From an uncultured Pseudomonadota bacterium (GTDB lineage: Bacteria > Babelota > Babeliae > Babelales > JAUPTZ01): DNA of 56,565 bases. Positions 45,001-51,000 of the stretch are shown here, piece after piece; positions within the stretch are counted from its first letter, which is position 1, and each line of letters starts with the position of its first letter. The stretch covers positions 513,776-570,340 of the forward strand of contig CAYSBJ010000001.1 in assembly GCA_964429275.1 (NCBI GenBank). Direction: 5' to 3'. The position numbers are program-made.

Positions 45001-48000
45001 ACTCGTTCTACGTTGTTGAACGTGGTGTCGATTAACGCCTCAAACATAAGTGCTTTTTTCGGGTCAAGTGGTGTGTTTGCAATCATAGCGAGTACAGCGG
45101 ATCGTACTTCATCGGGTGATTTAATGCCGGCAAAAAGAGCGTATATTTCATATGGGACGCCAAGACTTGGCGAATACTCAGCGGTTGGTTGACCGAGTGG
45201 TCGGCACATAGTCATGAGTTCATTGAGTTCTTTTACGAGTGGGTTATCTCCCATGCCGCGATTTTGAGCGAACAATAAAGCAATTTTTCTTTGTACTAGA
45301 CTGGCAATGTCGTCGCGAAGCAGTACGCCGTGAATATCAAAAACAATGACTGACCCTGCATTTAAAGCGATGGCGCTGAGGCATGAAAACAGCAATGCAG
45401 TAACTAGTGTGTGTTTTTTCATGAAATGTCCTTGGATGGTGTGATGATACCATCCCACTGTAGGCGGAGGGGGAGGACATTCGCAAGAGATTGCTTTTTT
45501 GAGCGCTGGGGTAGTCGTTAGAAAAGGTTTTCTATTGTTTCTTGAATTATCACCGTATTTTTTCTTATAGATCTTCCTCTGCTTTTATTAATTCAAGAGG
45601 TTGGAATGTTTTGGTATATGGCTTTTAGTTTTCTCTGTGTATGTGTTTCTTTTGTGGAATGTACGCAGGAGGGTGTCGCAGAAATTGTTAATTCAGACAG
45701 TTACCAGTATCAAGCGTGTGTTCGTAGTCTGGCGTTACATCCAGAACTTCAGGGGCAGTTTCAAAAAATTATGAGTTGGATTGCTGAAGGGAGGAAGGCC
45801 CCGCAAACTTTTGAGATAGAAGCTCCTATACTTGTAAAACGGCTAGAAAAAGAGTTATCACCAAAAGAAGCAGCGTCAGTAGTGGCGTTTGTGCAGGGTG
45901 CTTATAAAAAAGCAAAATATCGCCGTTGGAGGAAAAATGCCTTGATTGGTACCGGAGTAGTGGGTGCGGGCGTAGGCGTCGGCTATGGGGTGCATCGATA
46001 TTTAAAGAAAGGTGATGAGCCTCGTGCGAGACAGGCGAGCAGTCAGGTAGAAAGTGGAAATGTTGATATTAATAAGGGTGCGATCCATGCCATATCGCTG
46101 GGTACCTCATCACCTGATACGGTTGTAAAAGTGAGTGCGCGGCAATCGTCTGAATTGGAAAAAGAAGCCAAGCGGGCAAAACGCAAGAAAAAAGCTAATG
46201 GCCCATCAAAAAAAAGACGAAGATATGACATCCCACAGGCATTACCCATTGCTTTAACAGAAGAAGGGTCTCTGATGGGATTGTCGAGTGGTCTGACCAC
46301 GCCTCCGACAGCAGTAGATTTGAGTGAGGCTGAGGTCGGCCAGGGGGCCGTTGTTTTGCCGGTCGAATTAATCGATGCACCAGTAGCAGCCCCTGAAGTG
46401 CTTAGGGAGGCCCAAGAAGGTGAAGAAATAGCTACGGCTTCAGCGCAATCGTCTGAATTGGAAAAAGAAACCAAACGGACAAAGCGCAAGAAAAAAGCTA
46501 ATGACCCATCAAAAAAAAGACGAAGATATGACATCCCACAGGTATTACCCATTGCTTTAACAGAAGAAGAGTCTCTGATGGGATTGTCGAGTGGTCTGAC
46601 CACGCCTCCGGTAGCAGTAGGTTTGAGTGAGGCTGAGGTCGGCCAGGGGGCCGTTGTTTTGCCGGTCGAAGAGCATAGCTTTAAGGCAGACGCGGAATCC
46701 CATGGCAATAAAGCTGCTAATCTCACCAAATTACATGAATTTTGTAAAAAACATAGCCCATATATTAAAGAAAAGACTGGGTATGAATTGCGAGTGCCGC
46801 CATTTGTTGCCATTTCTTCTGAGGCCGTTAAGGGGTTTTTGAGAAAAGTCGTAGGCGTTGATCTTGATTTGTTGTGGAGTGAGTGGGTTATGAGCGCTGA
46901 TAGCAATCAAAAAAAACTCAGTGCAGCACGGGAAATTAGGGTGCAGCTCAAACAGAAATGTAATGAGAATTCTGCTGCTATTGTTGAGCTTGCTAACTTT
47001 GAAGAACTTTTTGGGCAAGAAGGGCGATTGGTGGATATCTTTTTATCAGATGATCGGACGCAAAAAAATAAAATAATGGTTCGCAGTACTGGCCGTGAAG
47101 ATACTGCCACTCTTGCCAATGCTGGGGGTAATACAAGTGTGCCCAATGTCGTTACTTCTTTCTCTGAAGTTTTTGGGGCAATGAAAAAAGTAATTTTTTC
47201 TTACCTTAGTGAGAAATCTCTTACCCAGCGTCTTGATGCGGGGGATGATATAGGAGCAGTTCCTTTCGTGCCGGTAATGATGCAGGTGATGGTGGGGGAG
47301 GATATGTCAGTGTCTGAAAAAGAGCGATTCATTCCGCGGTGTGGCGTTATGTATACGGAGGAACAAGAAGGTGGCTGTTTCTATGCAGCGGGGAAAAAGC
47401 ATTTTTCTGGTATAACCCTTATACAAGCGGCGTATGGGCATAATGAGCTCGTTGTTAATAGTTTGGGTAAAGTAGATACCTTTTTGGTAGACAAGAATTA
47501 TACTGTCCGCCAGGTCATTCGGAATAAGCCGTTTCGCCTCGTCCCAGGGGAAAGCAAGAAACTTGTTAAGCAACGCAATAAAGATAATAGTGCTCAAAAA
47601 CCCGCGTTGCCGCAAGCCGCAGTGAAGGCACTTAAAATGTTGGCAGAGCGCCTCGACCAACGAGCATTGCGTTCTAGGAATAATGATGAAAAAGCACCGC
47701 AAGATGTTGAGTTTGTTATCGCACATGAAAATGACCAAAACATTCTATATCTGGTGCAGGTGCGGCCTCTGGTTGCAAAACGCTATGAGCGGGTTCCATC
47801 CTATGTGCCAGCGGCTGTTGTTGATGGTGCTACAAAAGTTTTTGGGGAAGTGGTTGGCGTTGCCGGCGGTGCAGTGCGTACGGTACATCGTGAAGCAGAG
47901 GCTTTAACTGCAACAACGTTATATAGCGCCTTAAATAGTGAATTGCCTAATCGAGGAGAAGGGGCCAAGGACCAAATAGAAGCAGTATTTGTAGAAGAAG

Positions 48001-51000
48001 TTGCGGCAGAAACTTCTCATGAAGCAAATAGCATGGCTTTGTTGAAAAAGCCGGTTATTTGCCTTGGGAGCAACTATGCGACGGTTCTTGACTGGCTTAA
48101 AGACTCTGCACATGACGTGGTGTTTGATCCGCAACAATCATGTGTGTTGCTGTGGGATAAATCGAGTGGTGCAGCGCCGCAAGTTCCGGGTTGGTGCGCC
48201 TACCCACTTGCGCGTTTTCTTTCAGTGCCTGAAGTTGAAGGAGAGGGCGTTGCTGAGGTGATTGCTCGAGCGGATAACGACTTTAAGGCTCAAAAATTTG
48301 TTGGATATAAAGAACTTCGTGCGCAGCTTGCAGTCTTGAAAAATGGGGCGCCGGCTGCTATGGCTGAAGCGGTGGGAGCTATTTGGGGGTATGCTCAGAG
48401 GCTTGAGGGCGTGATAGCACGTAAGTTCGGTAATGAAGAGCTACGACCAAAAGGAGGCGCGATACGAGGGTCATATTCAGAACGATTGAGAAGCTTGCGC
48501 TACTACATTGCGCAGGCATTGCGTCAATGTCTTTCCAAGGAGAGCGCCGGGTGTGCGGTAGATGATCCTCGCTACCCTGCGCTTCGACTCTACCCAATCC
48601 ACTTTTTAGAGTTGCTGCTGTTTCAACAAATAAGCGATGAATTTTGTTTGTATGCAGATTCGATAACCATGGTTCAGAAGGCATTTGTAAAAGAGTTTAA
48701 AATGGCAAAGCAGTTGCAGAATGAAGCTGGTGGTGTGGCGAATATAAGCGAGGCAAAAGCGCTACTTTCTCTGTTTGAATCACAAGCCTTTCGTGATGAA
48801 ACAAAGGAAAAATGGAGAATGTTTATACGGACAAACTTTAGCGGACGCATTGTGGAAGGATCGGCACAAGACATTTTTTTGCGTAACCTGCGCCTACTGA
48901 AAGATTTGGACGTAGCACATCTCTGGCTTAATACCTCTTTTGCGACAAACCAAGATCTCGAGTTGCTTAATGCAGAGATTGCTCAGAGTTCAGGCTTTAT
49001 TGGTGAGCTCAAGGAGAAAAAGGAAGAGCTTGAAAGCATTGAAATCAGCGCTTTTGCCGATCCCCGAACTTTTTGGAGTGCATGGGGAAATTTTAAAGTC
49101 GTAGTAGACTATTTCTTGGGGGAACATTTTAGAGTTTTTTTTGCTTCCGAAGGAGGTGTGTTAAGTAAACTTATTGCCGTACACACTATGAGCAAATTGG
49201 TAGATCTTTTCGATCAAGCAATTAAGGCTGTGACCGGCCTCAGTGGTTTTGAGGTGCTTGAGAATAAGGCGAGGGAGGAGGATAGTAGTTTTTTTGATGC
49301 ATCTGGAGTGTCTTTGTTGGACGAAAATGCTGCTAAAGCTCAAATAAGCGAGAAAAAAGACAAGACGTTTGTTTTTTACTTTTTGCTTGTTTATTACAAG
49401 AATCTACTAAAGTCTTGGTATTCCCTTATGAAGTCTCAGGGAATAATTCTTTGCGATTTTTCACAGGATGGTGGTTTCGGTAATTATCCTCTAGATAAGG
49501 TAATTAACGAGTGGTTAGGGTCGTGTTTGAAAAATATTTCCTATGTGCATCCTCTGCGGCAGTTATCTTCTGAGGAATTTGATGTAAATAAGATCATGAT
49601 TGGGCAGCGTGTGAGGTTTGATCCTGACGCTTGGTTTATGCCGAAGACCTACGAAGCATACTTTACTTTTGTGCATCAGGCATTGTTGGTTATCATTGGG
49701 CGATTCATGCTTGATTTATGTCCATTGGAGAGGTTGCCTTTTTTTTATACTAATTTTGATAAGTTGCTTCGTGCGGGAGTAAATCCTGAGGCAGCGTCAG
49801 TTGCAAAAATGATAGGTGTCGCGTGTAGCGGTGCAGGAATTTGTGAAGTGCTTTATGCCATAGTGCTGTTTGCTCATGGAGCTAGGTTGCGGGTTCGGTC
49901 TACAGAGGGTATGCATACCTGCTCTGTAGACTTTAGAATCATTGGGCCGGAGGGCCTTTCTAGGTCCGTTGACCATAATGATCGATGGAAGAAGTCGCTT
50001 GATTATATCCGGTATAAAAAGGAGCAAGTGTTTGGTGGAGAGCGCATGCAATACAGTGCAGATAGGGATGGCATAAATGTACAGTGGCAGGAGTGTGGTT
50101 TCGATAAGGCTAGTGACATTGTTCTTTGTGTCAAAACATTATGTTCCTTGTCATTTGCGCTAATGAGTCACGCATTTCAGTTTTTGGGACAAGCTCCTCT
50201 CGAATTCTTGCGCGAAATTCGCGGTTTTTGCAAAGCAAGTGGGGAAAGTGGTAGTCAATTGCTTTCAATTTTATGGTTTAATATTCGATCTTTTGTGCCG
50301 GATGAGTCCTTTTTTTACTTGTTAGAAGCGGATTTTGCTCTGCTTGATTGGAATTATAGCTTGAGCAAGACTCAGGCGTTTATGGCAAATCTTTGCGCTA
50401 CATCTGAAGGCAAAAATCAGCTACAACGTATAATCTATACTAATGATCTTTCGGAATCATTAGTATTGTGTATGATTAAGAGCATTACTCGTCGACAGGG
50501 AGATATTTGTGACATTATTTTTGATCAAGCGCAGGCTGAAGCCTATTCTGAGAAAATTATGGAATATTATGCAGCAGCGTTAAATTTGTGTAAAAAGCGC
50601 AAGACCTTTGACGCAGACCAAACGTATCTTTTTTTTCTTAGGCGCGCCATGCCTTTACCTGAGCTTAAAACGTCTGTGAATAGATCCATAGAGTCACTTT
50701 TTGAAAAACTTATATTGTGTCTACCGAGCGTCGAAGAGACAGCAAAAAAAATGCGTGACGAAGCTCTTGCTGTAGTTGCAGATTGGGACAAACTTGGTTA
50801 GATCCATGCCTTGAACTGCTTTTACTCAGCTACTATTTCAATTGAGCTCAACGGATCCAAGATACTCGTGTCAAACTGCTCCTGGCTTCCCAGAAGCTTT
50901 CGATACAGACCCACATGCCTGATATTGCCAATCATCAAGAAGGCGCGCAAGATGTCATCTTCTACGATAAATGAATGGTGCCAATTGTCTCCCATGTAAG

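Follow-up and report, generated by a model that had tools for sequence, protein, structure and literature searches.

A gene in the window (the whole 56,565-nucleotide stretch of DNA that was analysed) of an uncultured Babelota bacterium encodes a protein of 1731 aa, in which the ATP-grasp and phosphohistidine swivel domains of dikinases are followed by a C-terminal domain of about 600 residues in place of a PEP/pyruvate barrel. It belongs to a large and undescribed family that is restricted to host-dependent lineages of several phyla. Judged from its sequence, dikinase-type chemistry, with an ATP-grasp domain and a His relay, is well supported. The reading that we favour, with a probability of roughly 0.55, is that of a phosphotransferase with a His relay that leaves the bacterium, draws on host ATP, and phosphorylates a non-pyruvate acceptor, its target being a host molecule.

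Layout of the gene and protein

The gene and its parts, all on the + strand, are arranged as follows:

45595..45600, +, Shine-Dalgarno-like AAGAGG, 5 nt upstream of the ATG (from sequence)
45606..50801, +, whole gene, 1731 codons plus stop, ATG start
45606..45662, +, N-terminal hydrophobic segment, residues 1-19 (Kyte-Doolittle)
45942..45995, +, Gly-rich, moderately hydrophobic segment, residues 113-130, ALIGTGVVGAGVGVGYGV (from sequence)
46142..46367, +, tandem duplication copy 1, residues ~180-254 (226 nt, reference copy)
46170..46223, +, basic cluster 1, residues 189-206, KRAKRKKKANGPSKKRRR (match to the bipartite NLS pattern)
46445..46670, +, tandem duplication copy 2, residues ~281-355 (96% identical to copy 1)
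46473..46526, +, basic cluster 2, residues 290-307 (from sequence)
46701..47780, +, ATP-grasp nucleotide-binding domain (PPDK_N, PF01326), residues 366-725 (Pfam E 2.8e-24)
47823..48161, +, phosphohistidine swivel domain, residues ~740-852 (profile alignment, conservation, model)
48018-48020, +, His805 codon, within the swivel domain
48288..50090, +, family-defining C-domain with a putative acceptor site, residues ~895-1495 (conservation, model)
50106..50798, +, lineage-specific C-terminal tail, residues 1501-1731 (homologue search)

A search of its own genome, which measures 1.21 Mb, found the gene as a single copy. The tail has no homologue among 190 family proteins, 66 genome-contig loci, and the own genome.

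A dikinase core without the pyruvate barrel

The genome-wide survey's note had described this ORF as carrying PPDK_N, a catalytic His805 in a T-S-H-E motif, no PEP/pyruvate TIM barrel, and Foldseek likeness to PEP synthase (PEPS), rifampin phosphotransferase (RPH), and pyruvate phosphate dikinase (PPDK), and every one of these points was reproduced. In the ATP-grasp domain, which aligns with that of RPH homologues at a probability of 99.1 (hhalign), K369, R493, E565, D700, E702, Q718, and R720 are invariant in a 44-row alignment. The T-S-H-E motif lies at residues 803-806, S804 and H805 being present in 44/44 aligned rows, and the family profile matches PEP synthase 8a8e (E 1.4e-25, with TSH aligned on the catalytic TSH) and 2ols (E 1.6e-22). 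The Pfam swivel family PF00391 matches some members only, for example L048 with 25.5 bits, above the cut-off. An AF2 model of residues 355-1500 (pLDDT 84.3, pTM 0.84) gives the swivel region a beta-rich fold with the His at a helix start. From this new model the Foldseek matches in the PDB were much the same as those noted before (RPH 5hv1 at 2.7e-11, PEPS 2ols at 8.6e-11, PPDK 1kbl at 2.6e-6), with HpeI 9goj at 3.1e-10 in addition, and all 16 matches at E<=0.001 were RPH, PEPS, HpeI, or PPDK.

As in PEP synthase and PPDK, an N-terminal ATP-grasp domain (PF01326) precedes a central T-S-H swivel. The third domain of those enzymes is the PEP/pyruvate TIM barrel, whereas here it is a ~600-aa helical and alpha/beta domain with invariant residues of its own; the family proteins are moreover twice as long, often have signal-peptide-like starts, and occur in host-dependent lineages only. 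That the protein might be an ordinary PEP synthase or PPDK of central metabolism with long extensions is suggested by automatic names ('PEP/pyruvate-binding domain-containing protein') and by weak matches to NCBIfam PEP_synth. In the query, however, the latter reach 46.5 bits where the cut-off demands 739.75, neither the PEP-utilizers_C (PF02896) TIM barrel nor PEP-utilizers was found in the query at E<=1 (Pfam), and the swivel is followed in the model by helical bundles and an alpha/beta sandwich, not by a beta/alpha barrel. With the PEP/pyruvate domain missing, this explanation is refuted and we give it scarcely any credence.

The family-defining C-domain

The region common to 61 homologues corresponds to query residues ~355-1470. 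Earlier work on this genome had noted some 850 further residues of unknown fold; the lack of a fold match stands, and the description can be sharpened, since this part includes a ~600-aa domain whose profile matches 48/48 long members from several phyla. Sequence conservation thus marks residues ~895-1495 as a conserved, family-defining domain, newly described here, and not as filler. D1203, H1357, Q1358, and H1424 are found in 48/48 sequences and K1207 and W1070 in 47/48, with S1019, E1350, and R1460 as further conserved residues. Among these 48 are 25 ORFs derived from loci in Legionella, Tatlockia, Coxiellaceae, Parachlamydia, and Chlamydiia MAGs, which lay outside profile building and were matched at E 1e-20 to 1e-102. 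Among the best 150 representatives, the C-domain usually follows the ATP-grasp and swivel domains, with its start ~500-800 residues from the N-terminus; in about one-tenth of them it starts within the first 20 residues, and these are probably contig-edge fragments. The C-domain may provide the phosphate acceptor site.

The model predicts helical bundles and then a terminal alpha/beta sandwich, and the C-domain has no Pfam family, no sequence match in the PDB, and no informative fold match. Its opening bundles resemble those of talin, vinculin, and alpha-catenin, which are adaptor modules in eukaryotes, and this likeness would fit a pseudoenzyme in which a relic enzyme module is retained by a scaffold or binding protein. 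A Z of about 10 nevertheless falls in a range that the tool calls uninformative, and the catalytic residues examined in the ATP-grasp and swivel domains are without exception invariant over the 44 rows, which makes a pseudoenzyme highly improbable.

RPH (5hv1, 5fbs) is the best Foldseek match and shares a homologous ATP-grasp domain. Its architecture is described in PMC4844700 as an ATP-grasp domain, a RIF-binding domain, and a C-terminal swivel; the dedicated acceptor-binding domain combines an alpha/beta sandwich with helical subdomains and itself had no structural homologue. Going by that description, the logic is alike in that a dedicated acceptor-binding domain replaces the barrel, but the swivel is central here and C-terminal in RPH. 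The query reaches 22 bits against the RPH equivalog NF041857 (cut-off 999), and comparison of the C-domain with the RPH acceptor domain gave no demonstrable homology (hhalign probability 0.3%, E 0.19). In precomputed assignments PF27448 (Rph_4th) is found in 0/61 family members versus 120/120 of the RPH homologues listed, and RPH is absent from the top 50 VIA rows for the C-domain. A protein-language-model search with the C-domain did place Rph_4th clusters first (0.85-0.86), which is a lead only. Also within the wider dikinase superfamily, the two-component HpeHI aryl kinases (HpeI 9goj) and the prodiginine ligases PigC/HapC are described as acting on non-pyruvate acceptors; PigC gives a weak NCBIfam match to the query (1.4e-5). 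These enzymes, however, work on small molecules in the cytoplasm of free-living bacteria and lack this C-domain.

Distribution and fused domains

At E<=0.001 the C-domain profile retrieves 1029 cluster representatives (clusters at 50% identity), so that the family comprises ~1000 clusters; the survey's 'more than 100' members was right about a large family and understated its size. The C-domain occurs in 46/261 genomes of the own phylum, 33/250 genomes of a Chlamydiota sample, and 12/198 genomes of a Legionellales-order sample. A wide Pseudomonadota sample yielded it in 1/401 genomes, namely the source genome itself, and in 0/400 others. The taxa named earlier were borne out for the own phylum, Chlamydiota, and Legionellales; Waddliaceae, Tisiphia, and Rickettsiales were not met by name, and the claim for Oligoflexia failed in the one genome searched, where no C-domain was found. 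Two 'Alphaproteobacteria' MAGs are among the homologues, taxon labels being taken from MAG titles, some of which are clearly odd ('Methanobacteriota', 'Planctomycetes'). Presence is patchy within the own genus, and tandem paralogues occur. The core of the original reading, a dikinase ATP-grasp and swivel without the barrel that is common to intracellular bacteria of several phyla, holds.

Members measure 1300-2300 aa and have variable tails, with ankyrin, DUF4116, and DSP-phosphatase as accessory domains; ankyrin fusions had been reported before, as had a cullin fusion, which at 25.5 bits falls below the Pfam cut-off of 33.2. Such sizes, the ankyrin, DUF4116, and DSP tails, and the paralogue expansions form a pattern of host-directed effectors and not of housekeeping or resistance. 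Seven of the 48 long members scanned carry a DSP-type phosphatase, which is C-terminal in six (P0013, P0034, P0041, P0080, P0115, and L059) and N-terminal in one (P0140).

GWD is functionally paired with DSP-type glucan phosphatases (SEX4, laforin-type) and has a domain order different from that of PEPS/PPDK, where the ATP-grasp precedes the His. If the protein were a dikinase of the glucan type and mobilised a storage polysaccharide of the host (glycogen, starch, or paramylon) by phosphorylating it, the fused phosphatases of the family could be the counterpart of those beside plant GWD. Like the family, GWD and PWD of plants and algae are giant (>1400 aa) His-relay dikinases, and they act on a macromolecule and not on a metabolite; the same His-relay chemistry is described for GWD (PMC13553574; bioRxiv 10.64898/2026.02.06.704335). 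The family nevertheless follows the PEPS/PPDK order and not that of GWD, no sequence or fold match to GWD appeared in the searches made, and carbohydrate-binding modules were found neither in the query nor in the 48 long members (E<=1e-4). The DSP families matched, PTP-SAK and Tc-R-P, are described as phosphatases of conflict or toxin systems, not of glucans. We therefore regard a glucan dikinase as improbable.

The N-terminal extension

The first 354 residues are confined to the own lineage. Both hydrophobic segments and the duplicated repeat with one bipartite basic cluster per copy, as the survey had them, were recovered. Residues 1-19 have a Kyte-Doolittle mean of 1.76 over 19 aa (best 15-aa window 2.06) and are signal-peptide-like, yet without a basic n-region. 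Residues 113-130, with a mean hydropathy of about 1.56 (computed by hand), are flanked on both sides by basic residues and may serve as a membrane anchor; both segments are retained in the orthologue L001 (80%). The duplication is a recent one and is visible at the DNA level as 2 x 226 nt of 96% identity, offset by 303 nt (101 codons). A contig from X2, a second run belonging to the study of the possible source run, bridges copy 1, spacer, and copy 2 (46210-46542), and L001 has the basic module once, versus twice in the 1731-aa protein. With 12 K/R per 18 residues, basic cluster 1 is the densest in the genome (rank 1 of 813 ORFs). The bipartite NLS pattern, (K/R)(K/R)-X10-12-basic cluster, would be consistent with nuclear import of the protein; it also matches 92/813 ORFs of the genome and is thus not specific.

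Possible export, and whom the enzyme may serve

Starts were scored as signal-peptide-like, by hydropathy only, when a 15-residue Kyte-Doolittle mean of >=2.0 occurred within the first 35 residues. This holds for 83/180 family members, about half of the family having no N-terminal hydrophobic segment, versus 0/114 RPH homologues. Since 273/813 ORFs of the source genome pass as well, enrichment of the family over the phylum background is not strong. The ATP-grasp domain starts at a median residue of 41 across the family. The genome has three secretin matches and, with one marker searched per system, no match to FHIPEP (T3SS) or VirB4 (T4SS). Its small size and at least five TLC ATP/ADP translocase genes tie the bacterium to a host. 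T2SS genes are listed as core in TM6 (PMC4776705), and for Chromulinavorax signal peptides are given for 44% of CDS and, among ankyrin proteins, for 78% (PMC6561590). The signal-peptide-like starts are an independent, hydropathy-based pointer to export of family members, and the enzyme may act on the host.

The same chemistry could instead serve the bacterium, with a periplasmic, envelope-anchored, or cytoplasmic enzyme that phosphorylates a small molecule, whether a xenobiotic (as in RPH), an aromatic compound or nutrient (as in HpeHI-type kinases), or an envelope component, using ATP that diffuses in or is imported from the host. The characterised Foldseek relatives (RPH, PEPS, PPDK, and HpeI) all act on small molecules, and the RPH 'fourth domain' lead points the same way. 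If a parasite in the host cytosol takes up ATP by TLC importers, that ATP would have to reach the periplasm. The two hydrophobic segments also fit an inner-membrane protein, and the catalytic part would stay in the bacterial cytoplasm if residues 113-130 act as a stop-transfer. Weighing against this alternative are the confinement of the family to host-dependent lineages, as reflected in its absence from the 400 other Pseudomonadota genomes sampled, the effector-like pattern of sizes, tails, and paralogues described above, and the lack of a demonstrable relation to the rifampin-binding domain in either the profile comparison or PF27448; we consider it unlikely, though deserving of weight.

Proposed mechanism and implications

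For the favoured reading, an exported phosphotransferase directed at the host, we propose a relay of three steps. The ATP-grasp domain (366-725) would bind ATP, the beta-phosphate would pass to His805 on the swivelling domain (~740-852), and this domain would deliver it to an acceptor domain of a new kind (~895-1495). In that domain, D1203, K1207, E1350, H1357, Q1358, and H1424 would transfer the phosphate to a hydroxyl of a substrate other than pyruvate. Export of the family would normally proceed via Sec, with type II secretion or vesicles as the probable onward route in the own phylum, and outside the bacterium the enzyme would act on a host molecule where host ATP is available. The lineage-specific N-terminal extension would add a possible membrane segment together with the strongly basic, NLS-like module of the recent duplication, and this module may send the protein to the host nucleus, to acidic membranes, or to nucleic acids.

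A more far-reaching version, in which the family members are secreted effectors that phosphorylate a host macromolecule by a phosphohistidine relay with host ATP, this member being nucleus-bound via its duplicated NLS, is possible but doubtful. If true, it would reveal a previously unrecognised effector class that uses such a relay instead of a protein-kinase fold, for which a protein, phosphoinositide, glycan, or nucleic acid would be candidate host targets, and which would be common to protist-infecting Dependentiae, environmental chlamydiae, and Legionellales.

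Dikinase Core of the Protein

The 1731-aa dikinase-like protein is encoded by a gene that is single-copy in its own genome and has the base composition of the window, with no compositional anomaly; no tRNA was found within the window.

45606-50801 (+): open reading frame with 1731 open codons and an ATG start
5 nt before the ATG (+): Shine-Dalgarno-like sequence AAGAGG

The genome-wide survey's note had described a dikinase-type ATP-grasp domain and a swivel domain with His805, without the PEP/pyruvate barrel, and this description was borne out. PPDK_N was located by Pfam at residues 366-725 (E 2.8e-24), residues 803-806 read T-S-H-E, and both the PEP-utilizers_C barrel and the PEP-utilizers domain were absent from the protein at E<=1. 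In NCBIfam, the protein scored 46.5 bits against a cut-off of 739.75 for the PEP synthase (PEPS) equivalog and 22 bits against a cut-off of 999 for the rifampin phosphotransferase (RPH) equivalog.

A whole-protein word search returned three proteins only; the main homologue set was obtained by region search (60 proteins, to which P0003 from the word search was added, n=61). The region common to these 61 homologues extends from residue ~355 to ~1470, and residues 1-350 and 1500-1731 were matched in none of them (BLAST). In an alignment of residues 355-1500 from 43 homologues, K369, R493, E565, D700, E702, Q718, and R720 as well as S804-H805 are invariant or nearly so. We take the ATP-grasp and swivel residues to be the counterparts of K22, R92, D321, E323, Q335, R337, and H455 of pyruvate phosphate dikinase (PPDK); the mutants K22A, R337A, and T453A are named in the PDB titles of Foldseek matches. 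A PDB search with the single protein sequence gave nothing meaningful; the profile of the core alignment matched PEP synthase 8a8e with an E of 1.4e-25, spanning the swivel domain and pairing the family's TSH with the catalytic TSH. AlphaFold2, run on the core alignment, modeled all 1146 residues with a pLDDT of 84.3 and a pTM of 0.84, and Foldseek listed 16 PDB entries for this model at E<=0.001, all of them RPH, PEPS, HpeI, or PPDK. Because of the conserved residues, the PEPS profile match, and the model with its Foldseek matches, the enzyme module looks intact and active. In the proposed mechanism, a phosphate of ATP would be passed to His805 and then to an acceptor on the third domain (C-domain), a chemistry that is well supported apart from its last step.

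A Third Domain Conserved throughout the Family

The C-domain, residues ~895-1495, is conserved family-wide. A model of residues 880-1500, built on 25 homologous fragments from genome loci (pLDDT 79.5), predicts several helical bundles and, after them, a four-stranded alpha/beta sandwich, not a beta/alpha barrel. When the C-domains of 26 members were compared with Pfam, no family appeared in more than one member at E<=1. The best match of the C-domain profile among PDB sequences had an E of 0.59, and the best Foldseek match of the model in the PDB had an E of 0.057. VIA-align against 48,161 chains gave a best Z of 10.4 (rmsd 2.7, 113 residues) to a talin-like four-helix bundle covering model residues 14-152 only, where the tool's own guide regards helical-bundle Z values below about 13 as uninformative; Foldseek's top chains, re-compared by VIA, reached Z 10.0 at best. 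For the alpha/beta part at the end of the domain, Z was only 5-6, with T3SS-chaperone-like and histidine-kinase CA folds, and none of the BFVD viral models matched at E<=0.001.

The C-domain HMM matches all 48 long sequences, that is, the window's protein and 47 ORFs of >=1200 aa from 66 family loci, with shorter or truncated ORFs excluded. Twenty-five of the 47 ORFs were independent of HMM building and carry the titles Legionella, Tatlockia, Coxiellaceae, Parachlamydia, and Chlamydiia.

Table. Conserved C-domain residues in the 48 long sequences
D1203, H1357, Q1358, H1424: kept in 48/48
K1207, W1070: kept in 47/48
E1350: kept in 44/48, Asp in 3 more
S1019: kept in 43/48, Thr in 3 more

These residues are drawn from four different sub-domains. 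By analogy with RPH, in which three sub-domains and the swivel domain flank the bound rifampin (PMC4844700), we infer that they would meet in one site, the docking place of the phospho-His domain.

Comparison with Known Dikinases

PEPS and PPDK share the first two steps and the domain order with the window's protein, but their defining third domain is missing from it. With RPH it has in common a bespoke acceptor domain; the domain order is different. So far, the known acceptors of dikinase-type His relays are pyruvate, rifampin, starch, phenols, and prodiginine precursors.

A protein-language-model search with the C-domain returned clusters of the RPH "fourth domain" (PF27448) first, twice, with scores of 0.85-0.86. 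As a proposal of homology this match was rejected, and it is kept as a lead: the hhalign probability of the C-domain profile was 0.3% with a single RPH homologue as well as with an alignment of 36, compared with 99.1% for the ATP-grasp parts of the family and the RPH homologues. PF27448 is precomputed for all 120 RPH homologues listed versus none of the 61 family members, and RPH is absent from the listed matches of all C-domain fold searches (Foldseek, VIA, BFVD). Two relatives of the RPH domain were found among 300 genomes of the class of Legionella dresdenensis, too few for a profile.

The L. dresdenensis genome (loci L076 and L013) encodes a family member of 1594 aa, a full-length RPH-architecture protein of 898 aa (E 2.6e-84 to 5hv1), and a PEP synthase of the ordinary kind, so that all three types of dikinase coexist in one genome.

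Size, Range, and Phylogeny of the Family

At E<=0.001, the C-domain profile retrieved 1029 cluster representatives (50% identity), 760 of them at E<=1e-30. In most of the best 150 of the 1029 representatives, ~500-800 residues precede the C-domain, enough to accommodate the ATP-grasp and swivel domains; in about a tenth of the 150 it begins within the first 20 residues, and these are probably contig-edge fragments. The family is confined to bacteria living inside protists. No published description was found in the literature searched, and the source names of members read only "hypothetical" or "PEP/pyruvate-binding domain-containing protein."

Table. Genomes with the C-domain
Window's own phylum: 46/261 (21/35 in one family; <=5 copies per genome)
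Phylum of a Parachlamydia MAG: 33/250
Order of Legionella dresdenensis: 12/198
Even Pseudomonadota sample: 1/401, the centre genome itself

Scanning genome contigs with an alignment headed by the C-domain yielded no confirmed locus; with the core alignment, 66 family loci were obtained, and their taxa are those in the titles of the records.

Table. Taxa named in the titles of the 66 loci
Dependentiae, TM6, or Babeliales: 17
Chlamydial: 12
"Pseudomonadota": 6
Legionellales (Legionella dresdenensis, Legionella sp., Tatlockia, Coxiellaceae): 4
Gammaproteobacteria: 3
Alphaproteobacteria: 2
Oligoflexia: 2
Delta/Myxococcaceae: 2
"Planctomycetes": 1
"Methanobacteriota": 1
Without taxon name: 16

The survey's note had also counted Oligoflexia within the range of the family, which did not hold in the one genome tested: the C-domain is absent there, and the locus is a 365-aa ATP-grasp piece only. 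A scan of viral contigs gave 173 pattern matches, none of which was confirmed.

In a quick maximum-likelihood tree of 48 long rows, with regions trimmed to the window's protein and SH-aLRT as the only support, nine legionellalean and gammaproteobacterial rows group together (SH-aLRT 96), the chlamydial rows fall into two or three clades, and the window's protein sits on a long branch in a clade of TM6-labelled and "Pseudomonadota"-labelled MAGs. The family thus tracks lineages for the most part and has expanded locally. At locus L043 of a Gammaproteobacteria MAG (2-17024), a recent tandem expansion has left three members of 2354, 1814, and 1410+ aa in head-to-tail order, their cores almost the same (tree branch lengths about 0.05). 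The gene is accessory in the genus of the window: a 79% orthologue, ended by the contig end, is present in one incomplete genome, and the gene is absent from another genome that is 98% complete. Some C-domain matches contain in-frame stops (G1383:C1:2302704-2303420 and matches in genomes G232, G233, and G1349), with four TGA in one match and a single TAA or TAG in the others; these are possibly decaying copies.

N-termini and Accessory Domains

Many family N-termini read as textbook signal peptides, the ATP-grasp domain then following at about residue 25-40 (median start at residue 41, n=168 members). The hydrophobicity of N-termini was measured as the 15-residue Kyte-Doolittle mean within the first 35 residues of P0002-P0191, from which 10 proteins not beginning with M were dropped (n=180). 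At a threshold of >=2.0, 83/180 family members passed versus 0/114 RPH homologues, and at 1.8 the counts were 114/180 versus 1/114; 273 of the 813 ORFs of the window's own genome pass the same crude test. About half of the family is without an N-terminal hydrophobic feature; some of these members belong to lineages with a T3SS or T4SS, and for others the start was miscalled (e.g., P0013). An ATP-dependent enzyme with a Sec signal is sensible only if ATP is present beyond the cytoplasmic membrane; for these organisms, this would be in the cytosol of the host or in a periplasm supplied by it.

A Pfam scan of 48 long members (28 + 20) revealed a DSP-type phosphatase domain (PTP-SAK, Tc-R-P, DSPc) in seven, located C-terminally in six (P0013, P0034, P0041, P0080, P0115, and L059) and N-terminally in one (P0140). 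That this domain is fused at either terminus points to a functional link or, failing that, to its having been recruited repeatedly into multi-enzyme effectors. Other accessory domains are ankyrin repeats (P0032) and DUF4116 (L040, L050). Of the other fusions proposed earlier, HEAT was reduced to a single repeat, and cullin fell below the Pfam cut-off, as did glyoxalase matches in the 48 long members.

The N-terminus (1-354) and the tail (1490-1731) of the window's protein have no relatives except in its orthologue L001, the gene's closest relative (80% identical, titled Candidatus Dependentiae). Residues 1-19 are hydrophobic (2.06 by the measure used for the family) and lack a basic n-region, and the segment at residues 113-130 is Gly-zipper-like and moderately hydrophobic, with Lys and Arg on both flanks; both segments are kept in L001. 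Should residues 113-130 act as a stop for Sec transfer, the catalytic part would be retained in the cytoplasm of the bacterium, unlike in single-signal members.

The duplicated basic repeat noted in the survey was confirmed at the DNA level: a 226-nt stretch recurs in frame 303 nt downstream with 96% identity. The repeat junction is covered by contigs of two sequencing runs, and since one contig of run X2, which shares its study with the possible source run, spans 46210-46542, bridging copy 1, spacer, and copy 2, the duplication is real and recent. No RNA dataset was listed among the runs containing the sequence. Each copy encodes KR-x11-KKRRR, with 12 K/R in 18 residues the densest such window among the 813 genome ORFs; in L001 the stretch is present once, with a related basic cluster. 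A bipartite-NLS regular expression matches 92/813 genome ORFs and is unspecific, and nuclear targeting of the protein is a plausible guess.

Organism and Genomic Neighbourhood

The organism is probably a member of Dependentiae, the phylum named in the title of L001, whose members are obligate parasites of protists. The genome (1.21 Mb, 8 contigs, 98% complete) carries at least five TLC ATP/ADP translocase genes (G000:C1:344200-354500 and C2:125400-126740), four of them in a row on contig 1. FHIPEP and VirB4 had no match in this genome, and secretin had three. According to two published studies, T2SS genes are core in Dependentiae (PMC4776705), and Chromulinavorax has signal peptides on 44% of its CDS and 78% of its ankyrin proteins (PMC6561590).

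The gene is flanked by the following features, of which the ABC-transporter and HAD neighbours are the same at L001:

41219-41869 (-): ankyrin-repeat protein
42219-43094 (+): ABC ATPase
43012-43878 (+): membrane protein
44622-45458 (-): HAD-family hydrolase with a signal-peptide-like start, syntenic in L001
52265-53185 (+): leucine-rich-repeat protein with a signal-peptide-like start

The ABC ATPase and membrane-protein ORFs overlap by 83 nt as listed, and the true start of the latter is probably further downstream. Elsewhere in the window, seven consecutive ORFs at 25153-40444 (+), of 1204, 485, 344, 961, 1054, 402, and 512 aa, are without a Pfam match at E<=1e-5; each has a start resembling a signal peptide, in several with Gly-rich GSGGGFVVDSGG-type motifs soon after, and they may form a cluster of surface or autotransporter-like proteins.

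Implications

In this family, the same dikinase engine drives a third domain without a database description, in about a thousand sequence clusters, and many members have signal-peptide-like starts and effector-style accessory domains. Export and a host target would be the most economical reading of the distribution, signals, and architecture. The invariant residues and His805 offer ready-made mutant sites for testing. If the acceptor is a host molecule, the family would represent a biochemically new way for intracellular bacteria to modify their hosts, and Dependentiae, a poorly understood phylum, would gain a concrete, assayable effector.
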